A stretch of DNA of 64,000 nt. It comes from Reclinomonas americana ATCC 50394. Lineage: Eukaryota. Of this stretch, positions 21,491 through 56,182 are shown piece by piece (positions within the stretch are counted from its first letter, which is position 1; each line of letters begins with the position of its first letter). Position numbers and translations under genes: made by a program. The stretch lies in the NCBI GenBank assembly GCA_048213135.1, contig PS015113.1, positions 1 to 64,000 on the forward strand, written 5' to 3'. Under the pieces are notes generated by a model. That model was given only the letters and a program-made list of their open reading frames with translations, was not told the DNA's origin and did no database searches.

Positions 21491-24400
21491 CTATGGTGGA
21501 GGCGGTGGCGCACCGAAGATGCGCTGCAATTCCTGGAGCACACGGGACATGGAGGGTCTGTCGATGGCCTTCCTCTGCACGAACGACAATGAGAAGTCGC
21601 CCGCAAAGGGTACTTGTCAACATAACCAACTCACCCAGCAAGCCGCCACCAACTCGCTCAACGCGTCGTTGAGCTGTGGGTGATCGAGCGCACCAGGCAG
21701 TCTGCCTTGGTGAACCTCCACTGGAATACGCAAACTGTCGACGCCTTTGAACGGCTCCTGTTGAGTGACGCAGTACCACAGAAGCGTCCCAAACGAAAAC
21801 ACATCGGCTCGCTCATCGTACTGCCCGGGCCCAGTGCGTCAGCAACGACATGACGAAGAACAGCACGCAGGTCGTGTCACTATACCTCTTCGCCGAGCAG
21901 CACCTCAGGAGCAGCGAATGCTGGTGTGCCCACTGGAGTCTGCAATCGTCCCAACGTGCCCTGTTCACGAGCCTCGCCAAAGTCGCACACTTTGGCGGTC
22001 TGCCGATCGCCGCTGATGAGAACATCTGCAAAGCAGGGAGGCAGTCAGAAAACGCACTTCAGTGAGAAGCAAACGCAAAAGCAACGCGAAAGGCGATGAA
22101 AGTACTCGATCGCGAGGTTGAATAGAGATAAAGGACATTGAACATCCCCTCCGGACTCCATCGGCCCAGAGAGGTGGCATCCAGAAACACAACTTTGGGG
22201 CTTTAGATCTCGATGCACCACTCTTCGCGAGTGCATGTGTTCCACCGCCAAGCCAACTTGCACCAGAAGCCGTAGCAGATGCTGTTGACCAATTCCGCTC
22301 CGCACAAGTTTGAGCAAAGTCTCAGGGAGGTCGTCAATCTTGTCTGGCCCGACATACTCAAGCACCAGTCCAGGGCCGTGAGGGTCATCTTCGCATACGG
22401 CCACCAGTTTGACAATATGCGGGTGGCTGTTCATGTATGCGAGTGGGTACGATACCGACGGGTGATATGCTCACCATGCGTGACGCAACTCCAGGCGCAT
22501 GAGCAAGCGCTCCTCATTCGTGACACACTGCATCATCTCCAGTCTGCGGTCGTCATCGGGGTGCTCAAAACGTTTGTATGCCACCACAATGCCTTCGCCG
22601 CCGACAATCATCACAGTTCGGTAGACGCGACATGTGTTCTGGCCTGCAAGAAGTCAAAATGAGTGTTCGAACACTAAACACAACCAAGGGCTTCTCCCGA
22701 GTGCAAGCGAACCAACGCCAATAAACTGTGGGCTGCCGAATTCTTCGCGCTTGATGCGCGGTGCGTGTACAAGGAGCTTCTTCTTCTCCTCGTTTAATAA
22801 CTCATCTGTAACTTGAATCTGGCTCACTCCTGCGACATCAAATCAGACGGTTTGTCAGAAGAAAGCGCAGCACGGAATGGTAATCGACGCAACGCTGGTA
22901 GGACTCAAACAAACGGTCAATGCATGCGTGCCCCGCAGGGAACAGGCATTGCAGGCAGTCTCTGATGGTGCGAACAATTCCAACGTACTCAGCGTCGGTC
23001 AGTGACGTCGATTCGGCCAAGTGCGACACGCGATTGCGCGCATTACGCATTCGGTCCACAGCATCAATCTGCATTATCGGCATGCAGTGAGGGCGACGAT
23101 TGAATTGCTTCCAATGTCGACCGCCTCACAGACCTTTTCGGTATCACTCAGCAGCCGCATCGCCACCCGGTCTTCAGCAGGTCCGGCAACATCTGCGCCG
23201 ATTCGTGTGCTCCGATTCCACAAGTCAGCGTCAGCACATCGTGCAATCGGGACGTAGGTGATCTCGAGAAGCAGGGTTGTCAGAAGGCTGACATCCATGT
23301 CTGTCACAGATCCATTCCGTGCGAATTCACACACGGCCTCGAATTTTTCGCGGAACACTTTTGCCGTTCGAGTGTGCATCTTTCCAGCGTCGTCGACCGA
23401 CATCCACACATATCTTGCGATGAATTGTCATGAGTGCTGCTCACTGCAGTGAACAGAGAGAGAGCACACAAACCTGCCACATGGACGGTCACAACAGAGA
23501 TTTGTGATGTCGAATTCGCCGGGATAGAAGCCCGAGATCAGCTGCTGGAATAGGGAGGCGAGAGCGAAGGGCACCACATTGTGCATGATCTCGGTGAGCA
23601 TGAAGATGGGTCGACGGTCACTGCAGATACTGACAGGTGAGATGTCTCGAATAAAGCAACGGATTATGGCAATGGAACAAAGTACCTCAAGAAATCCATG
23701 TGGAAGAGAGCCTCCAGCTGCTGTCGGAGACGCGCAGTCTGCTGCGTCTGCTCATCCAGGGCCAGCTGCAGGTGAGCGATTGTTGCGTCGCGAGACTCTA
23801 CTGTCTCCTGTAAGTGCTGTGAAGCAGATTGTAGCTCGGCAACAACAGCGTCGTTTTCTTGTTGTCGCTCGCGAAGACAGCGTTCAAGGCGAGTGACCGT
23901 AATATGGAGTTGTGTTCTGTCGAATTCCGCGGCACGCAGCTCGCTCAGTTGACGCTGGAGTTGCATCAAGACAGCCTCCGCCTCTTGCAGGCGACTTGAA
24001 TTGCCAGACTACAAATAACCAGCAGCGCGAGTTAGCTGAAACATCCGGATCCGAAGAAACTGCTATAGCGCACCTCTGCAGCTGATAGTAGCGGCGCATG
24101 CCGAGGAGAGGTGGTTGGTACGACTGTCACAGCAGGAAGCAAAGAAGGGTCGCCGACTGTGTTCAACAAATTGGCACTAAAGTATGTCATCACCACTTCA
24201 TGAGACGAGAAACAAACCTCCCGGAGGCGATTCTCGTACATGCCGAGAGGAGGAATCTTGCTCGACAAGCAACGTGGGCAACTTAGCCACGTCGCATTTA
24301 TCCGCGGTACGAGCCACGTGGGCAGCCGTCTTGCCGTCCTTGTTGACCCTGGGAATCAGATGCGGATACGCAGTCGCCAGGAGTTGCACAATCAACTCGT

Positions 24401-27400
24401 GGCCTTTCTCGGCGGCGTAATGCAGTGCAGTGGAACCAGCCAGCCATGCTTCGTCATTCGTCACAGCAAACACCATCTCCCGAGAACATCGTCGCTCATC
24501 GGCAAGAAGCCATTCCACCACTGCCAAGTGGCCGCCACTGGCTGCATACATGAGCGACGTCCAGCCAAAGTCGTCAACCAGCGGTGCAAGTTGAAGACCA
24601 ATTCCACTCTCCTCCCATAGATACTCCAGCACGGCGAGGTGACCACGCCAAGCAGCAAAGTGGAACGGCGAGCCTCCATGAACGTCTCGCTCATCCTCGT
24701 TCACCAACGTCTCCAGGCCCTCGTCCGCCACCAGTCGGCGCAGCGCTTCCACATCACTGTCCGCTGCCATCAACCACGCCTTCTTCCGCCTGCATCAGTC
24801 CCCGGCCGCGTAAGCGAGAAAACACAAGCTGATAAACAGAGGGATACAAACCTGTGGTGCGGCGGTTGTGATGCCAGTCGGTCAAGCATTCTGGCCACGT
24901 CATCTTTCCCAGCATCAAGAGCCACCTGGGCCGCTGTCTGGCCATCCTTGTTGATCTTCGGAATCAGATGCGGATACGCAGTCGCCAGGAGCTGCACAAC
25001 CGACTCGTGGCTGTTCTCGGCGGCATAGTGCAGTGCAGTGGAACCTGGCAGCCGTGCTCGGTCATTCGCGACAACAAGCACCATCTCCGCGGGGCATCGT
25101 CGCTCGTCAGCTAGAAGCCACTCCACAACTGCCAAGAGACCGCCGTAGGCCGCATACATGAGAGATGTCCATCCTATGTCATCAACCAGCTTTGAAAGTT
25201 GAGGACCGACGTCACTCTCCTCCCATAGATACTCCAAGACGGCAAGGTGGCCACGCCAAGCAGCACAGTGAAATGGCGAGCCTCCATAAACGCTTCGTTC
25301 TCTCTCATCCAACAGCTTCTCCGCGCCCTCATCCACCACCAACTGGCGCAATGCTTCTACATCGCCATCATCTGCCAGCAACCAAGCCTTCTTCCGCCTG
25401 TGTCAGCCACCGCGTGAGCGGTGATGTGGAAACATGATGGTGCAGTCCTGCATACCTATACAGCGGAGGCTTTGATGCCAGGCGATCCAGCAACTCGGCC
25501 ACGTCATCTTTCCCAGCATTAGCAGCCACTTCGGCGGCTGTCTTTCCATCCTTGTTCACCTTTGGAACGAGATCCGGATTCGCAGTCGCCAGGAGCTGCA
25601 CGATCGACTCGTGACCTCTCTCCGCGGCATAATGCAGTGCAGTCGAACCAGGAAGCCCTGCTTCGTCATTCGTCACAGCAAGCACCATTTCCCGTGGACA
25701 TCGCCGCTCGTCGGCCAGAAGCCACTCCACCACTGCCAGGTGACCACCGTAGGCAGCAGCCATCAGCGACGTCCCGCCATTGCCATTGACCAGTAGTGAG
25801 AGTTGAGGACCGACACCACTCTCCTCCCACAGAAACACCAGCACGGCGACATGACCATCTGAAGCAGCACAGTGGAAGGGCGAGCGTCCATAAACGTCTC
25901 GCTCTCTCTCATCCAACAGCGTCTCCGCGCCCTCATCCACCACCAGCTGGCGCAGNNNNNNNNNNNNNNNNNNNNTGCTTCCACGTCGCCATCCTCTGCC
26001 ATCAACCAAGCCTTCTTCCGCCTGCGTCAGTCCCCGGTCGAGTAAGCGAGAATGCACAAGCTGATCATGATAAACAGAGGGATACAAACCTGTAGTGCGG
26101 CGGTTGCGATGCCAGTCGATCAAGTAAGTCGGCCACGTCATTTTCACCAGCATCAGCAGCCTCTTCCGCGGCTGTGTTTCCATCCTTGTTCACTTTTGGA
26201 ACGAGATCCGGATAGGCAGTGGCCAGCAGTCGCACAATCGACTCGTTGCCGTTCTCGGCGGCATAGTGCAGTGCAGTGGAACCTGGCAGCCACGCTCGGT
26301 CATTGGTAACAGCAAGCGCCATCTCCAGTGGACATCGTCGCTTATCGGCTAAAAGCCACTCCACCACTGCCAAGTGGCCGCAGTTGGCAGCAGTCATAAG
26401 TGGCGTCCATCCATAGTCATTGACCAACTGAGCAAGTCGAGGACCAACCCCACTCTCCTCCCACAGATACTCCAGCACATTAAGGTGGCCTCGCCGAGCA
26501 GCACAGTAAAATGGCGAGCTCCCGAAAACGTCTCGCTCTCCCTCGTCCAAGAGCGTCTCTGCGCCCTCTTCCGCCACCACCTGTCGCAGCGCATCCACAT
26601 CGCCATCCGCTGCCAGCAACCAAGCCTTCTTCCGCCTGTGTCAGCCACCGCGTGAGCGGTGATGTGGAAACATGATGGTGCAGTCCTGCATACCTATACA
26701 GCGGAGGCTTTGATGCCAGGCGATCCAGCAACTCGGCCACGTCATCTTTCCCAGCATTAGCAGCCACTTCGGCGGCTGTCTTGTTCTCCTTGTTGATCTT
26801 CGGAATGAGATCCGGATAGTCGGAGGCCAGGAGTTGCACAATCGACTCGTGGCCTCTCTCCGCGGCATAATGCAGTGCAGTCGAACCAGGAAGCCCTGCT
26901 TCGTCATTCGTCACAGCAAGCACCATTTCCCGTGGACATCGCCGCTCGTCGGCCAGAAGCCACTCCACCACTGCCAGGTGACCACCGTAGGCAGCAGCCA
27001 TCAGCGACGTCCCGCCATTGCCATGGACCAGTAGTGAGAGTTGAGGACCGACACCACTCTCCTCCAACAGAAACACCAGCACGGCGACATGACCATCTGA
27101 AGCAGCACAGTGGAAGGGCGAGCGTCCATAAACGTCTCGCTCTCTCTCATCCAACAGCGTCTCCGCGCCCTCATCCACCACCAGCTGGCGCAGCGCTTCC
27201 ACATCACTGTCCGCTGCCATCAACCACGCCTTCTTCCGCCTTCGCCGGTAATTATGTAAGCGAGAAAACACAAGCTGATAAACAGAAGGGTACAAACCTG
27301 TGGTGCGGCGGTTGTGATGCCAGTCGGCNNNNNNNNNNNNNNNNNNNNNNNNNNNNNNNNNNNNNNNNNNNNNNNNNNNNNNNNNNNNNNNNNNNNNNNN

Positions 27401-30400
27401 NNNNNNNNNNNNNNNNNNNNNNNNNNNNNNNNNNNNNNNNNNNNNNNNNNNNNNNNNNNNNNNNNNNNNNNNNNNNNNNNNNNNNNNNNNNNNNNNNNNN
27501 NNNNNNNNNNNNNNNNNNNNNNNNNNNNNNNNNNNNNNNNNNNNNNNNNNNNNNNNNNNNNNNNNNNNNNNNNNNNNNNNNNNNNNNNNNNNNNNNNNNN
27601 NNNNNNNNNNNNNNNNNNNNNNNNNNNNNNNNNNNNNNNNNNNNNNNNNNNNNNNNNNNNNNNNNNNNNNNNNNNNNNNNNNNNNNNGGCCAGGAGTCGC
27701 ACAATCGACTCGTGGCCTTTCTCGGCGGCATAATGCAGTGCAGTGGAGCCAGGCAGCCGTGCTCGGTCATTCGTAACAGCAAGCGCCATCTCCAGTGGAC
27801 ATCGTCGCTTATCGGCTAAAAGCCACTCCACCACTGCCAGGTGACCGTCACCGGCAGCATCCATGAGTGGCGTCCAGCCTACGTCGTCCACCAGCTCAGC
27901 AAGTTGAGGACCAACCCCACTCTCCTCCCACAGATACTCCAGCACATCAAGGTGGCCTCGCTGAGCAGCACAGTAAAATGGCGAGCTCCCGAAAACGTCT
28001 CGCTCTCCCTCGCCCAAGAGCGTCTCTGCGCCCTCGTTTGCCACCATCTCCCGCAGTGCTTCCACATCACCCTCGTAGGCCATCAACCAAGCCTTCTTCC
28101 GCCTGTGTCAACCACACGTAAGCAAAAAAAAATGAGTCGGTAGACAGACAGCAGACGAACACCTGTAGTGCGGCGACTGCGACGCAAGACGATGTAGCAG
28201 CGCGGCCACGGTGTACTTGCCGTTGGAAAATGCCACTTGTGCGGCTGTCTTCCCATCCTTGTTTACCTTCGGAACGAGGTCTGGGTAGGCAGTCGCCAGA
28301 AGTTGAACAATCGACTCGTGGCCTTTCTCGGCGGCATAATGCAGTGCAGTGGAGCCAGGCAGCCGTGCTCGGTCATTCGTAACAGCAAGCGCCATCTCCA
28401 GTGGACATCGTCGCTTATCGGCTAAAAGCCACTCCACCACTGCCAGGTGACCGTCACCGGCAGCAGTCATAAGTGGCGTCCAGCCCAAGTCGTCAACCAG
28501 TTGCGCAAGTTGAGGACCGACGCCACTCTCCTCCCACAGATACTCCAGCACGGAAAGGTGGCCTGACAATACCGCACAATAAAACGGCGAGCTCCCATAG
28601 ACGTCTCGCTCTCTCTCATCCAGAAGCGTCTCTGCGCCCTCTTCCGCCACCACCTGTCGCAGCGCATCCACGTCGCCATCATCTGCCATCAACCAAGCCT
28701 TCTTCCGCCTGCACAAGTGACTGCATGAGTGGCGATCAAGAGTAGTGATGTAGGAGGCATGGTGGGTGGTACATATCAACACACCTGTAATGCGGCAGTT
28801 GCGATGCCAGTCGGTCAAGCAGCGCGGCCACGGTGTACTTGCCGTTGGAAAATGCCACTTGTGCGGCTGTCTTCCCATCCTTGTTGACCTTGAGAAGGAG
28901 ATCCGGATACGCAGTGACCAGCACTTGCACCATCAACTCGTGGCCTCCCTCGGCAGCAAAGTGCAGTGCAGTCGAACCAGGAAGCCATGCGTCATCGGAT
29001 GTAACAGCAAGCGCCATCTCCAGTGGACATCGTCGCTTATCGGCTAAAAGCCACTCCACCACTGCCAGGTGACCGCCACCGGCAGCAGTCATCAGCGACG
29101 TCCCGCCATAGTCATTGACCAGCTGAGCAAGTTGAGGACCGACGCCACTTTCCTCCCACAGGTACTCCAGCACGGCTAGGTGACCTTCCGAAGCAGCACA
29201 GTGAAATGGCGAGCCTCCATAGACGCTTCGCTCTCTCTCATCCAACATCGTCCCCGCGCCCTCTTCCGCCACCAACTGGCGAAGTGCTTCCACATCACCA
29301 TCCGCTGCCATCAACCACGCTTTCTTCCGTCTGCACATGTCACCGTGTAAGTGGTGAGCAGCCATGAAAGGAGATAGACTGAAGCATACCGGTGGTGCGG
29401 CGGTTGCGACGCGAGTTGGTCCAGCAACTCGGCCACGTCATCTTTCCCAGCATTAGCAGCCACTTGGGCGGCTGTCTTTCCATCCTTGTTCACCTTTGGA
29501 ACGAGATCCGGATGGGCAGCGATCAGTATTCGGACAATCGACTCGTGGCCTTGCTCAGCGGCATAGTGCAGTGCAGTCGAACCAGGAAGCCGTGCTGCAT
29601 CAGATGAAACAGCAAGTACCATCTCCCGCGGACATCGCCGCTCGTCGGCTAGAAGCCACTCCACCACTGCCAGGTGACCGCCACCGGCAGCATCCATGAG
29701 TGGCGTCCCGCTGTAGTTACTGACTACCAGGGCAAGTTGAGGACCGACTCCACTCTCCTCCCACAAATACTCCAGCACATTAAGGTGGCCTCGCCGAGCA
29801 GCACAGTGGAACAAGTTGCCAAAAACGTCTCGCTCCCTCTCATCCAACAGCGTCTCTGCGCCCTCTTCCGCCACCACCTGTCGCAGCGCATCCACGTCGC
29901 CATCATCTGCCATCAACCAAGCCTTCTTCCGCCTGCACAAGTGACTGCATGAGTGGCGATCAAGAGTAGCGATGTAGGAGGCATGGTGGGTGGTACATGT
30001 CAACACACCTGTAATGCGGCGGTTGCGATGCCAGTCGGTCAAGCAGCGCGGCCACGGCGCTCTCGCCGCTGGAGAGAGCCAGTTGCGCGGCTGTTTTGCC
30101 ATCCTTGTTGACCTTGAGAAGGAGATCCGGATACGCAGTGACCAGCACTTGCACCATCAACTTGTGGCCTCCCTCGGCAGCAAAGTGCAGTGCAGTGGAA
30201 CCAGGAAGCCGTGCTCGATCATTTGTTCCAGCAAGCACCATCGCCCGTTGACATCGTTGCTCGTCGGCTAGAAGCCACTCCACCACTGCCAGGTGGCCGT
30301 CACACGCGGCCACCATGAGTGGCGTCCCGCCATAGTTATCGACAAGCTGTGCGAGTCGAGCGCCGACGCCACTCTCCTCCCACAAGTATTCCAAGACGGC

Positions 30401-31236
30401 TAAGTGACCTCGCTCAGCAGCACACTGAAACGGCGAGCGTCCATAAACGTCTCGCTCTCTCTCATCCAGCAGCGCCTCTGCACCCTCGTCCACCACCAAT
30501 CGGCGCAGCGCTTCCACATCACAGTCCGCTGCCATCAACCAAGCCTTCTTCCGCCTGTGTAAGCCACCGTGTGAGTGGTGAGCAGCCATGTAAGGAGGTG
30601 GAGTCTAGACTAGTACTGAAGCATACCGGTGGTGCGGCGGTTGCGACGCGAGTCGGTCCAGCAACTTGGCCACGTCTTCTTCACCAGAATTAACAGCAAC
30701 TTGGGCGGCTGTCTTTCCATCCTTGTTCACCTTTCGAACGAGATCCGGATGGGCAGCGATCAGTATTCGGACAATCGACTCGTGGCCTTGCTCAGCGGCA
30801 TAGTGCAGTGCAGTCGAACCAGCCAGCCGTGCTCGCTCACTTGTAACAGCAAGCACCATTTCCCGTGGACATCGTCGCTCATCGGCTAAAAGCCACTTCA
30901 CCACAGCCAGGTGACCGCCGTTGGCAGCATCCATGAGTGGCGTCCCGCTGTAGTTACTGACCACCAGGGCAAGTTGAGGACCGACGCCACTCCCCTCCCA
31001 CAGGTACTCCAAGACGGTAAGGTGGCCTTGCCAAGCAGCACAATGAAATGCAGATTGGCCGCCTTCAGCCATCTCCTCCTTTGTCAGCAGTGTTGCTGCG
31101 CCGTCACTGGCCACCAGTGCCCGCAGCGCATCCACGTCTCCATCCTCGGCCATCTCCCATGCTTTTTTCCGCGCACTAACAGAATATGTGAGTGAACACA
31201 CTCGCACAAACACACAGCCACACGCACTCGCCTCAT
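21491..31236 (-). CDS. Giant ankyrin (at least 11 exon modules) - coiled coil - HEPN (DZIP3-like) - TKL-type kinase protein
   Basis: Start micro-exon 31236-31232; ankyrin exons 31175 to 24218 joined by phase-2 introns; then exons 24156-24074, 24008-23686 (coiled coil), 23629-23474, 23413-23134 (MDVSLLTTLLLEI), 23068- (DAVDRMRNARNRVSH). Kinase exons carry IGVGQNTCRVY, VAYK, HPHIVKL, HRDLKPQN, DFG, GTPAFAAPE, DVFSFG, CW..DRPSM; stop at 21491. Confidence 0.75.
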
Positions 31237-31388: not shown

Positions 31389-33635
31389 ATGACCGTCCTC
31401 CGCAGCGGCGAATGGCGCCTCCGTCGCCGCCCACAAGGCACCCTCACCGAAGACGACTTCTCCTGGCACGAGGTGCAAATCGACAAGACCGCCCTCGCCG
31501 AAGGCGAAGTCATCGTGCGCACAATCTACCTCAGCCTCGACCCCGTTGCGTAAACCCTCCCCCAAGTGCACACACACACACACACACACACACAAAGAGA
31601 GAAAGAGAGAGAAAGAGCAAGAAAAGAATGAGAATGCATGTTTGCATGCATTTCATCTCCGTTTCTCCGCCTGCTCTCCACAGTCCAACCGCATCTGGGC
31701 CTCCTCTCAAGAAGGCTACCTCCCCCCAGTGGAGATCGGCGAGGTCTTTCGTGGCATGACTGTCGGCCAAGTGGTCGCCGTGGCCTCCACCGGAAAACCA
31801 CACTTTGCAGTCGACGATATCATCGTGAGTGCCTTTGCTCCCCCCCCCCCCTCCTCTCCCGCTCTCGCACGCTCGCTCACNNNNNNNNNNNNNNNNNNNN
31901 ACCCGAAACCAACTTTGTCAGTCGACGATATCATCGTGAGTGCCTTTTCGCCTCCCCCCCCCCCCCCCCCCCCCCCCCCTTCCTCCTCCCCTTCTCCTCT
32001 GCCTTACTGGAGCAGACTGGCGGCTGGGGCTGGCGTGAATATGCGGTTCTCACGCCCGGCGACCAGCGGCAGTGTCGCAAGGTGCCGCACCCGCGTGACT
32101 CGGGCATTCCGCTCAGCGCGTACATGGGTCTGCTGAGCTTCATTGGCGCGACGGCGTATTTCGGTGTCGTGGATGTGTTGCGCCCGAAGGCCGGCGAGAC
32201 GTTTGTCGTGAATGCTGCTGGTGTGGGCCTTGCGGGGAAAGAAAGAGAGAAGGCGGGGAGAGAGGAAAAGTAGGGCAGTGCTCTTTGATTGCGGAAGAGG
32301 CGACGCGGGTAGACGAGGAGGAGAACAGGGGAGCCTGGGAGAGAGGAGTAGGGTGACATCCTGTGATTGCGGTAGTGGCGATGCAGGGAGACGAGGAGGG
32401 AACTGGGTGGAGAGTGGGATAGAGAGAAAGCAAGAAGGGCGCCGTCCTTTGATAGCGGTGGTCGGCAAGCGGGATTTTCGCTGTTGTTGGATTGCTCACT
32501 GCGTGTGTTGACAGCCGGAGCTGTGGGCAGCATTGCGGGTCAGATCGCCAAGTCGCTCGGATGCTACGTGGTGGGCATTGCCGGTGCCGACGACAAGTGT
32601 GGTGCGTTTCTTAGTTTTTTTATCTCGCTCTCCCACACACACGAACACGCGATTTCTTCTCGATATCGTTGTTCTTTGCGTTCTGTCACACGCCTCTTTC
32701 TTCTGTTGCACATCGCCCGTGTGACAACAAGCGTGGTTGTCTTGCTACCCCCTCGTTCTCTCACTCTGACACTCTCACACACTCCCACACTCACACATAC
32801 GGTTTACACGATGTCATTGTTCTTTGCGTTTCTGTGACACGTCTCATACGTCGTGGCATTGCCAGCGTCGACGACAAGTGTACTTGTCTTGTCTCTCTCT
32901 CTCTCTCTCTCTCTTCCTCTCTTTCTCTCAGTCTCTCTCTCCCCACTCAAGTGAACACAAGAGTGGACAGAAGATTTCTGCTCCGGAGCGGAGTAGAAGC
33001 AAGCCATTCTGTCTGGTCCCCTCCCTTTCTTCGTAGTGTCAGTCTCTTTATCGCTGGTCTTTCTCTCCCCTCCCCCGTTCCGCCTCCTCTCTCTCCCCTC
33101 TCTCTTCCCCTTCCCCCCTCACTCTCTCTTCCCCCTTCGCCCCCCTTCCCCCTCTCTTCCCCCTCTCCCCCTCCCCTTCCCTCTCTCTTCCCCCTTTCCC
33201 CCCTTCTCTCCCNNNNNNNNNNNNNNNNNNNNCCCCTTCGCTCCCCTTCGCTCCCCTTCGCTTCCCCTTCGCTTCCCCTTCGCTTCCCCCTTCGCTTCCC
33301 CCTTCGCTTCCCCCTCGCTTCCCCTTCGCTTCCCCTTTGCTTCCCCTCCCCCTCCTCTCTTTTCCCTTTTCTTACTCTTCCCTTCCCTTCGCCCGCCAAT
33401 CAGGTTCATCATCCTCGACTACGCCAGCCGCTACGGCGAGTGCTTCGCCGAGCTCGGCAAGCTGCTGAAAGCCGGCAAGGTCAAGTACCGCGTGGACACG
33501 GTCGACGGCCTTCGCAGCGCCCCGAGCGCCCTCAATCGCCTCTTTGACGGCACCAACACCGGCAAGCTGTGCGTCCGCGTGACGCCCGACGTGGACGGTA
33601 GCACCTCCACACCCACTCTCCGTGCGCGCCTGTGA
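31389..33635 (+). CDS. NADP-dependent alkenal/prostaglandin reductase family oxidoreductase (PTGR1/CurA-like MDR); middle exons probably lost in a gap
   Basis: WRLRRRPQG..DDF, EGEVIVRTIYLSLDP, YLPPVEIGEV, GWREYA, GATAYFG..PKAGETFVVNAA|AGAVGSIAGQIAK..GCYVVGIAGADDK, DGLRSAPSALNRLFDGTNTGKL. Confidence 0.9.
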
Positions 33636-53331: not shown

Positions 53332-56182
53332 CTGCCATGGCTGTCGACGGCAGCGGCAGTAGTGGTGCAACCGCTGCCAACGGCGATGGGAATGGGGCGG
53401 CGCCTGAGGTGGACCCGCTCGATGCATTCATGGTCGACGTGGCGAGCACCGTGCAGCAGCTGGATGGTGGCGATTCGGTGCGTTTTCCTCGCTCTCCCTC
53501 GCTCTCCCTCACCTCGACTGCTTCTCACCACTCATTTTCCGCAGCTGGTACGTGATCGACTGGGAGGCTTGGTATCGAACAAGCCGGCCGCATCCATGGC
53601 CATCTCGCTCGACGACATTATGAGCGGCAAGATGGACGTCGATCAGCCAATCAAGCAGGAGTCCGACGATGTAGAGCAGGAGGCGAATGGCGCGGGTGGC
53701 GACAGCGATGAGTATCGACAGCGCTTCCTCGAGGCGATGCGCAAGGCCAGTGACGCGCCGGCGGCAGGTGGTAGCAGTGGTGGTTCTGGTTCTGGTGGTG
53801 CCTCCGGCGGTGGTGCAGCTTCGTCGTCGTCGACTGGCGGCGGCGCGGCCAATGGTGACGACGATGACGACGAGGATGATATGGCGGGTGGCGGTCGTGG
53901 CGACGATGACGATGAGTACATGGGTACGGTGGTGGAGTCGGAGGCGGAGAAGAGCAACAAGAAGGACCTGAAGCCAGTCGACCACTCCAAGATGAACTAC
54001 GAGAAGTTTACGAAGAATTTTTGGATCGAGCCACGTGATGTGGCACGTCTGACAGACGCGGAGATCAAGGCACAGTTGGCCGCCGACAAGGTTCGCATTC
54101 GCGGCAAGGGTTGCCCGCGCCCGATCCGTGCCTGGCACCAGTGTGGTTTGCCCACGAAAATGTTGCGTCTACCTCTTCTCTCCTCCTCAGTCCACCGCTC
54201 TTTACCTCTTTTGCCTGTCCTCCTCTTTTCTCCACTCCTTGCCTCTCCTCCTCCTTCTTCCACTCCTTGCCTCTCCTCCACTTTCTTCCACTCTTTTGCC
54301 TCTCCTCCTCTTTCTTCCACTTTGCCTCTCCTTTCATTTTTCCACCGCTCTTTACCTCTCCTCTGTTTCCACTCTTTGCATCGCCTCCTCTCTCTTCCAC
54401 TCTTTGCCTCTCCTCCTCTTTCTTTCACTCTTTGCCTCTCCTCCTCTCTCTTCCGCTCTTTCCTCTTTCTTTCACTGTTTGCCTCTCCTCCTCTCTCTTC
54501 CACTCTTTGCCTCTCCTCTCCTCTCTTCCACTCTTTGCCTCTCTCTCCTCTCTTCCACTCTTTTGCCTCTCCTCCTCTCTTTCTTCCAACGCTCCTCCTC
54601 ACACACTCCCTTGTCTCCCTCCGACCAGTGTGGACGTGATTAACAAGTCGGGCTTTGAGCGGCCATTTGCGATTCAGCAGCAGGCGATTCCGGCCATCAT
54701 GTCGGGCCGCGATGTGATTGGCATTGCGAAGACGGGCTCTGGCAAGACGCTGGCGTTTGTGTTGCCGATGTTGCGCCACATCAAGGATCAACCGCCACTA
54801 CGAGAGGGCGATGGACCGATTGCACTCATCATGGCGCCCACGCGCGAGCTGGCCACGCAGATCTACTCGGACACGAAGAAGTTTGCGAGCCCTCTCGGTC
54901 TGCGCACGGTGTGTGTATACGGCGGCGCCGGCATTGCCGAGCAGATTGCCGATCTGAAACGTGGTGCCGAGATCATTGTGTGTACACCAGGGCGCATGAT
55001 CGACTTGCTGTGTGCCAACCGCGGTCGTTGCGTTCTCCCCTTCTCTCCCACTGCCTCCAACACCGCCCACCCTCCTCCACTCACGCGTCATTTGTGTGGA
55101 ATACAGGTGTGACGAACTTGACTCGTGTGACGTACGTTGTGCTTGACGAGGCCGATCGCATGTTTGATTTGGGATTCGGTCCGCAGATCACCCGCATCAC
55201 GGAGAATGTGCGACCGGACCGACAGACGGTGATGTTCTCGGCCACGTTTCCGCGTGCCGTCGAGAAGCTGGCCCGCGGCATTCTGCGCAAGCCGATCGAG
55301 ATCGAGGTGGGCGGTCGCAGCGTGGCCTCGCAGAGTGTGACGCAGTATGTGGAGGTCATGGAGGAGGAGGCCAAGTTCCTGCGGCTGCTCACGCTGCTCG
55401 GTGAATGGTACGAGCGCGGCAGTGTGTTGGTGTTTGTTGATCGACAAGAAGAGTGTGACTCCTTGTTCCACGACCTCATGCGTGCCGGTTACGATTGCCT
55501 CTCGCTCCATGGTGGCAAGGTACGCTCCCCTCGCCGCACTGTGTCTTGTGTGTCTCCACATTTGGTGTGCCCAACTGGTCGTTCCCCTCCCCGCTCGCCG
55601 TGCAGGAACAAGTGGACCGTGAGTACACGATTGCGCAGTTCAAGGCCAAGGAGAAGACGCTGATGGTGGCCACGTCGGTGGCCGCGCGCGGCCTGGACGT
55701 CAAGGATCTGGTGCTGGTCATCAACTACAACGCACCGAATCACTACGAAGACTACGTGCATCGCGTCGGTCGCACAGGTCGTGCCGGACGCACCGGCACC
55801 GCGTACACCTTCATGACGCCGGCTGAGGAGCGGTACGCCCCCGACTTGGCCAAGGCGCTCGAGCAGAGCAACAATGCCGTGCCGGAGCAGTTGCGCAAGA
55901 TGGCCGACGGTGAGTTTGCACTGTGTTTTGTTTGCATGTATGCATGATGCTCAACAAAACACGTGTGTTGTGTGCGCAGCGTTCCTCAGCAAGCGCAAGG
56001 AGGGCACAGTGAAACACTTTTCCAATGCAGGGTTTGGTGGACGCGGATTCAAGTTTGACGAGACGGAGGAGAAGGCGAAGCGTGAGGCGAAACGACGCGA
56101 GGCACGCGCGATGGGCTTGTTGACGGAGGAGGACGCCGAGAGCGACCACGAAGACGACAAGGGTGGCGACGAGGACGGTGAT
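53332..56182 (+). CDS. DDX46: DEAD-box RNA helicase DDX46/Prp5 (partial at both ends)
   Basis: [95 protein letters not shown]. Confidence 0.93.
54170..54600 (+). repeat. Intronic ~30-bp pyrimidine minisatellite
   Basis: Repeated ctctttgcctctcctcctct..ttcca inside a DDX46 intron. Confidence 0.85.

Follow-up and report, generated by a model that had tools for sequence, protein, structure and literature searches.

A candidate ankyrin, coiled-coil, HEPN-like and kinase protein at a single locus of Reclinomonas americana

RNase L combines ankyrin repeats, a pseudokinase and a KEN RNase domain, and Ire1 combines a kinase with KEN. The HEPN fold is a four-helix up-down bundle, a metal-independent RNase that is active as a dimer. 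In the ankyrin-repeat TKL kinases of protists and animals, the TKL-like kinase domain follows N-terminal ankyrin repeats. Here we describe a locus of Reclinomonas americana ATCC 50394 at which an ankyrin array, a coiled-coil-like segment, a HEPN-like domain and a TKL-like kinase follow one another on the minus strand, from 31236 to 21491. All positions refer to the window, the 64,000-nt stretch at positions 1-64,000 of contig PS015113.1 (assembly GCA_048213135.1), and our structural inference rests on the window sequence alone.

HEPN domains of the DZIP3/hRUL138 and CXorf38 types are described as fused to ankyrin, NACHT, Death, CARD, TPR and RING domains (PMC3710099 Table 1; PMC8260672), the NACHT fusions being those of cnidarians (PMC8260672). 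Lineage-specific expansions of these types into immune-like sets are reported from Nematostella, oyster, Capsaspora and cnidarians (PMC3710099; PMC8260672), and the types have been recorded so far mainly from animals and Capsaspora (PMC3710099). No kinase fusion of either type is listed in the passages of PMC3710099 and PMC8260672 cited here, and the titles and abstract openings of papers listed by literature searches gave no ankyrin-HEPN-kinase architecture.

Our findings differ in firmness. That a very large ankyrin-array gene, real and selected, adjoins a real kinase-bearing module is solid. That both belong to a single fused protein whose middle domain is truly HEPN, encoded at approximately 31236-21491, is the likeliest of our readings but a tentative one, finely balanced and leaning slightly towards doubt.

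The ankyrin array and the kinase-bearing module

The window is eukaryotic draft sequence, with 19 runs of N (2,662 N in total), numerous microsatellites and a guanine-cytosine (GC) content mostly of 0.47-0.62; an Rfam scan of it gave no match. Within the locus, a long series of ankyrin open reading frames (ORFs) and kinase fragments is interrupted by short stop-bearing stretches. Eleven ankyrin units, each an exon, were recovered by tblastn (Table 1). The eight gap-free internal units measure 543-549 nt each, the two units with N gaps having been left out of this measurement, and are in phase 2 at both ends; therefore, units could be gained, lost or skipped without a change of frame. By eye, each unit holds about five ankyrin repeats, or about 55 in total, while Pfam reported two to four ankyrin stretches per unit, depending on the model; the last unit matched Ank_2 at E=2.7e-21 and Ank at E=1.1e-17.

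Protein identity among the nine gap-free units is 59-84%. The ratio of nonsynonymous to synonymous substitution rates (dN/dS) across their 36 pairs is 0.18-0.42, with a median of 0.29, at dS values of 0.34-0.98. The ankyrin units are under purifying selection, and the dN/dS and dS values together identify them as old, selected copies, not as a recent or decaying array. A metagenome scan with an ankyrin unit returned one generic match of 31% identity (L001), and a viral scan with the same kind of query returned none.

Splicing can unite the 11 ankyrin exons with 11 more exons in a single open frame. We number the exons and introns of the 3' part from the last ankyrin exon; from there to the stop codon this part comprises 12 exons, 11 GT-AG introns and 829 open codons. 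Its introns measure, in order, 61, 65, 65, 60, 65, 85, 69, 48, 168, 65 and 60 nt, so that seven of the 11 fall at 60-65 nt. The nine gap-free ankyrin units and the 11 tail exons all have an open frame; GC content by codon position is of the coding type in the exons (GC1>GC3>GC2), and GC is lower in most introns. The 3' part was modelled by hand and then checked by script. An automatic gene model with a codon-bias score trained on the ankyrin exons picked wrong introns and was dropped.

The original prediction, made from the same sequence, had the apparently separate ankyrin ORFs and kinase fragments splice into one frame through a 61-nt intron reading GGA G/GTTTGT...ACACAG/TC GGC (slashes mark splice junctions). 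That intron is exactly as described, and from the last ankyrin exon on the fragments can be joined in one frame of 829 codons with GT-AG introns of 48-168 nt. Intron 4 (23414-23473) requires an AAG acceptor, as does the array intron at 27297-27240. An alternative donor for intron 6 would give a 55-nt intron and 14 codons more, a choice that is undecidable from sequence.

At the 5' end, the proposed start at 31236 (ATGAG/GCGAGT) is backed by the start of a neighbouring ankyrin-only paralogue, gene 2, which reads ATGAG/GTGAGT at 19969-19965; a conserved in-frame ATG about 80 nt downstream of 31236 is the alternative. On this side the gene meets its limit at 31391, where a divergent ORF starts on the plus strand. 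That ORF begins 155 nt from the proposed start, which leaves a very short shared promoter region, and its first 54 amino acids had no Pfam match.

At the 3' end, three consecutive exons match kinase profiles above their cut-offs: Pkinase with 44.2 and 32.0 bits (cut-off 31.7) and PK_Tyr_Ser-Thr with 24.0 bits (cut-off 23.1). The matches are collinear (profile positions 57-127, 129-170 and 174-241) across introns 9 and 10, and HRDLKPQ/N is completed across intron 9; these two introns are thereby fixed. VAYK, a candidate alpha-C Glu, HRDLKPQN, DFG and APE are all present. In line with the earlier claim of a complete kinase, the catalytic motifs are intact. The N-lobe exon had no Pfam match of its own. 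Among 60 of the 86 solved chains matched by the C-lobe exon, the best were TAK1, MLK, ZAK, MLKL and CTR1; IRE1 and RNase L were absent from these 60 and from all 40 chains matching exon 9. A homologue search with exon 9 among proteins of up to 2000 amino acids passed one of 1087 candidates (P0001, 43% identity), which consists of kinase domains only and is uninformative on architecture. By its sequence, the kinase appears to be a TKL-like Ser/Thr kinase with intact catalytic residues, and looks active rather than pseudo. Elsewhere in the window, an exon-like minus-strand ORF at 6540-6869 matches a protein kinase at E=1.4e-24 and is 36% identical to the kinase of this locus over 69 amino acids.

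Table 1. Features of the ankyrin-kinase locus (gene 1) and of the ankyrin-only paralogue (gene 2).
Feature	Position	Strand	Basis or remark
Proposed start stub ATGAG, 5 nt coding	31232-31236	-	Likened to paralogue start
First intron, GC-AG, 56 nt	31231-31176	-	Non-standard GC donor
Ankyrin array, 11 exon units	31175-24218	-	Pfam, tblastn
Ankyrin units 1-5	31175-30627, 30554-30009, 29932-29390, 29330-28785, 28708-28163	-	Exon bounds
Ankyrin unit 6	28102-27298	-	Contains N gap 27329-27687
Ankyrin units 7-8	27239-26694, 26635-26090	-	Exon bounds
Ankyrin unit 9	26021-25456	-	Contains 20-N gap 25956-25975
Ankyrin units 10-11	25397-24852, 24789-24218	-	Exon bounds; unit 11 is exon 1 of the 3' part
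Intron 1 (key link), 61 nt, GTTTGT...ACACAG	24217-24157	-	Sequence read
Exon 2, 27-codon Pro/Ser/Thr/Ala/Leu-rich linker	24156-24074	-	Model only, without independent support
Intron 2, 65 nt	24073-24009	-	Gene model
Exon 3, coiled-coil-like, 107 codons	24008-23686	-	Weak Pfam matches; frame opens at acceptor
Exons 4-6, all-alpha, HEPN-like, about 190 amino acids (model residues 327-520)	23620-23474, 23413-23134, 23068-22915	-	Profile and Atlas leads
RNRVSH, candidate Rx4H motif	23038-23021	-	Sequence read
Exons 7-12, protein kinase domain	22829-21491	-	Pfam, catalytic motifs
Kinase VAYK Lys	22575-22573	-	Model
Kinase HRD Asp	22209-22207	-	Model
Kinase DFG	21984-21976	-	Model
Stop codon TAG	21493-21491	-	Model
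Gene 2, ankyrin-only paralogue, six units	19969-16077	-	tblastn, Pfam

The coiled coil and the HEPN-like middle domain

Between the array and the kinase lie a coiled-coil-like exon and three exons that we read as a helical domain. Exon 3 drew 31 weak Pfam matches, and those listed are mostly coiled-coil families (e.g., GOLGA2L5, HMMR_N and Fib_alpha). Nine exon translations were scanned against Pfam at E<=10; among exons 4-6, only the 51-amino-acid exon 6 (23068-22916) was matched, by DUF4145 (E=0.055) and by HEPN_DZIP3 (E=0.1, 12.8 bits, profile positions 81-119 of 144). A longer ORF piece around exon 6 matched HEPN_DZIP3 at E=0.056 and 13.7 bits; over the two scans, DUF4145 lay at E=0.055-0.13. 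Pfam clan CL0291 includes DUF4145 among its HEPN families (PMC3710099).

The HEPN motif is given as Rx4-6H, in which the Arg is followed by a polar N, D or H, at the end of helix 3 (PMC3710099). In exon 6, RNRVSH is the candidate: it is a canonical Rx4H motif whose Arg precedes an Asn, it lies where the HEPN profile places the motif, and downstream of it come a short loop and an amphipathic segment. The strict pattern R[NDH]xxxH occurs once in the 829-amino-acid tail, at RNRVSH, against 0.30 occurrences expected by composition.

An Atlas language-model search with 76 amino acids covering this exon (22841-23068) returned DUF4559 at rank 3 (0.88), a cluster that is 100% HEPN_DZIP3 at rank 4 (0.88) and one that is 55% HEPN_DZIP3 at rank 7 (0.81), scores that, being below 0.9, count as leads only. 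DUF4559 is the CXorf38 domain (PMC4554924), and CXorf38 is listed among the HEPN families (PMC3710099). Structure prediction for exon 5 alone (AlphaFold2) gave two long helices at a predicted local distance difference test (pLDDT) value of 45, and a two-chain prediction of exon 5 with exon 6 gave no answer (score 0.02, mark 0.34).

The original prediction had placed a HEPN-like domain here and named 22940-23630 as the interval in which a HEPN match should lie. A match exists on exon 6 only, below its cut-off: the RNxxxH motif and the sub-threshold HEPN matches on that exon speak for the domain, and the curated threshold and the unmatched exon 5 speak against it. We consider the middle domain quite likely to belong to the HEPN superfamily, as judged from motif, profile and Atlas neighbours, and its catalytic competence less likely than its membership. 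It is an orphan domain with a HEPN-like catalytic helix and, as a HEPN member, would be nearest to the animal DZIP3/CXorf38 types.

The link between array and module, and alternative readings of the locus

The adjoining gene 2 is the natural reference for the junction between array and module. Its units are 182-amino-acid exon modules that by tblastn share 58-70% identity with the final unit of gene 1, and its own last unit matches Ank_2 in Pfam at E=1.8e-20. Gene 2 has no coiled coil, HEPN-like domain or kinase and stops within approximately 200 nt of its last unit; beyond the 3' block that the two loci share, no module remnants were found in its 193-nt tail. Comparison of the loci aligned 16316-17000 with 24278-24957 (75.5%) and 15620-16123 with 20668-21189 (90%). 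Relative to the paralogue, gene 1 thus has an extra 3.1 kb (21189-24278) between its last ankyrin unit and the shared 3' block. The ankyrin part of gene 1 is therefore left without its own 3' end region.

On the plus strand, the shared block overlies the 3' end of a gene that is CotH-like, matching CotH in Pfam at E=1.5e-5 over 15482-15907. The 3' end of the CotH-like gene is duplicated on the plus strand at 15620-16123 and 20668-21189, with 90% identity; the copy at 20668-21189 is apparently only a 3' fragment and adjoins a gap and (GAA)n and (CT)n repeats.

The last ankyrin units of gene 1 and gene 2 both end in a phase-1 donor, suggesting an ancestral last intron just beyond which the module now lies. 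The donor and acceptor of intron 1 are of the same type as those of the array introns, and a ranking of sites in 24850-21400 with a position weight matrix (PWM) placed both at the 99th percentile (among 226 GT and 193 AG dinucleotides, respectively). The open frame of the coiled coil starts exactly at its acceptor. We judge it probable on balance, from splice-site quality, from the adjoining ankyrin-only paralogue and from how little space is left between them for a 3' end and a promoter, that the ankyrin part and the coiled-coil/HEPN-like/kinase part are one gene.

Several observations weigh against a single gene. The open frame itself stands, as the original prediction had it, but it does not prove a fusion. 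When the 219 nt of 24229-24011 were shuffled, an in-frame path into the coiled-coil exon with at most two GT-AG introns arose in 990 of 1000 shuffles for introns of 45-170 nt and in 614 of 1000 for introns of 55-90 nt. Since an in-frame link is found in 61-99% of shuffles, frame continuity carries no weight for fusion, and the joining itself is unproven. The PWM is biased towards the array type, as 10 of its 16 training introns are homologous array introns. Exon 2 is short and of low complexity, and its GC3 of 0.43 is atypical of coding sequence here. Intron 1 contains a TGA (24200-24198) that would be a stop if the intron were retained, and 8 nt past it an ATG (24190-24188) stands in frame with exon 2; therefore, a separate downstream gene of approximately 640 amino acids is possible. 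The paralogue, 1.5 kb downstream, demonstrates that an array can stand alone, and intergenic spacers in the window are short, as between the divergent starts upstream of the array. The rival reading is one of two adjacent genes, an ankyrin-only gene and a gene for the coiled coil, HEPN-like domain and kinase. The former would end at the intronic TGA, at a VPIC-stop exon reached through the acceptor at 24177, or at 24034-24032 if intron 2 is retained; the latter would start at ATG 24190 or at a Met inside the coiled-coil exon. This arrangement would leave only 0-70 nt for a 3' end and a promoter, and it would deprive the ankyrin part of the shared 3' block, which sits downstream of the kinase. 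The acceptor it could use, TAG at 24179-24177, ranks at the 27th percentile, and the resulting intron of 41 nt would fall below the 48-168 nt of the other 21 introns scored, whereas the sites of intron 1 are array-type and top-ranked; several out-of-frame ATGs also lie upstream of the coiled-coil Met. We therefore hold two genes to be rather unlikely, if a serious competitor. An artefact of assembly, or a pseudogene in decay, is a very improbable explanation of the locus. The assembly is a draft, two of the N runs fall inside the array, and unit 9 is put out of frame by its 20-N gap; however, there is no N in 21189-25955, so the junction region is contiguous, and the open gap-free units and tail exons and the low dN/dS values speak against this explanation.

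For the middle domain, the alternative is a single fused gene in which exons 4-6 encode not a HEPN RNase but a lineage-specific helical spacer or regulatory domain, within an ankyrin/coiled-coil/TKL-kinase scaffold. Here the difficulties for a HEPN assignment accumulate. Every HEPN score is below threshold: HEPN_DZIP3 (PF18738) reaches 12.8-13.7 bits against a cut-off of 27, over profile positions 70-122 of 144 and in single exons only. The top two Atlas matches are unnamed viral clusters (0.90 and 0.88), and agreement among only four of the ten matches suggests that the family may be wrong. The loose pattern Rx4-6H, found seven times in the tail against 7.4 expected, is uninformative. Exon 5 (93 amino acids), where the first HEPN helices would be expected, had no relative among 1.84 billion protein representatives, no match in Pfam and no usable match in the Atlas. 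PADLOC (none of five queries) and NCBIfam (none of four) likewise gave no match; a word-indexed search with it of proteins of 164-2000 amino acids gave 136 candidates, none at E<=0.01; the Protein Data Bank (PDB) gave two chance-level matches (E 1.4-3.1). A metagenome scan gave 257 pattern matches, none confirmed, and a scan of viral contigs gave one pattern match and no locus, probably a chance match of eight residues (E-values being relative to the candidates). Exon 6 likewise had no homologous-protein candidate, and its one PDB match was at chance level (E 1.6). Against the helical-spacer alternative, two profile families and three Atlas clusters agree on HEPN over the same short stretch, and the strict motif falls at that stretch although only 0.30 are expected over the whole tail. 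A fused gene with a domain other than HEPN is unlikely in our estimation. The glycine loop of the kinase, GVGQNTCRV, also tells against the full reading: the third Gly is missing and the loop exceeds GxGxxG by one residue, and by eye no alternative in-frame donor restores it. This deviation bears on kinase activity and not on kinase membership.

A possible mechanism and comparison with known systems

If the single-gene reading with a HEPN domain holds, the product would be a cytosolic protein of approximately 2,650 amino acids. It would begin with a solenoid of ankyrin modules, 11 or more in number and of five repeats each, followed by a short linker, some 105 amino acids of coiled coil, a divergent all-alpha HEPN domain of about 190 amino acids and a C-terminal TKL-like kinase. 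The ankyrin surface may bind a partner or ligand, and the coiled coil could pair two chains. Such pairing would bring the HEPN-like domains together and let the kinases trans-phosphorylate; it could activate the HEPN-like domain, since the active site of HEPN RNases forms only in a dimer. Both the role in defence and dimerisation upon ligand binding are purely inferred.

An ankyrin-only gene resembling gene 2 may have acquired the coiled-coil/HEPN-like/kinase module by way of the last array intron. Gene 2 shares with gene 1 the start structure, the 182-amino-acid modules, the phase-1 donor after the last unit and the 3' block beyond; unlike gene 1, it has six units and lacks the 3.1-kb module. 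An ankyrin-only copy beside a copy with an effector module at the same position offers a natural comparison, and looks like exon shuffling through an intron. The most far-reaching version, an independently built RNase L-like sensor-effector with an active HEPN RNase and an active TKL kinase, assembled by exon shuffling into the last intron and triggered by dimerisation in defence or stress, is unlikely. If the single-gene reading with a HEPN domain is correct, ankyrin sensor, kinase and HEPN RNase would have been combined here for a second time, by independent assembly and in the opposite domain order; the locus would bear on the origins of RNase L/Ire1-type logic and extend HEPN domains of the DZIP3/CXorf38 type to a kinase fusion. 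Should the HEPN call or the fusion fail, what remains is an ordinary ankyrin gene adjoining, or fused with, a TKL kinase.

Two further exon-like ORFs with domain matches lie on the plus strand of the window, one at 4359-4800 with a PH domain (E=5.4e-12) and one at 54659-55660 with a DEAD-box helicase domain (E=5.3e-13).

How far the resemblance to RNase L extends can be read from domain content and order. As predicted for this locus, RNase L unites ankyrin repeats, a kinase fold and an RNase-type domain of the HEPN superfamily in a single chain (PMC3710099), and by analogy its logic, activation by dimerisation, would be expected here too. Unlike in RNase L and Ire1, the HEPN-like domain precedes the kinase, reversing the order. 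Unlike RNase L, the predicted protein has about 55 ankyrin repeats, against nine, as well as a coiled coil, and its kinase looks active. KEN/Ribonuc_2-5A was not matched by any of 19 Pfam queries (10 ORF pieces at E<=1 and nine exons at E<=10), and the protein ends 28 codons past the last kinase exon junction. With no KEN match, a reversed order and an unrelated kinase, it falls outside the RNase L/Ire1 family. The RNase L-like architecture proposed originally (ankyrin repeats, coiled coil, HEPN-like domain, kinase) therefore survives as a content and order compatible with the sequence, and there is no sign of descent from RNase L or Ire1; the resemblance would be one of logic at most.

For the motif exon, the nearest families are the DZIP3/hRUL138 and CXorf38 HEPN proteins, although the match here is sub-threshold and the first two-thirds of the domain are unrecognisable. 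The ankyrin-repeat TKL kinases share the placement of ankyrin repeats ahead of a TKL-like kinase; unlike them, the candidate protein has a very long array of whole-module exons, and a coiled coil and a HEPN-like domain stand between the array and the kinase.

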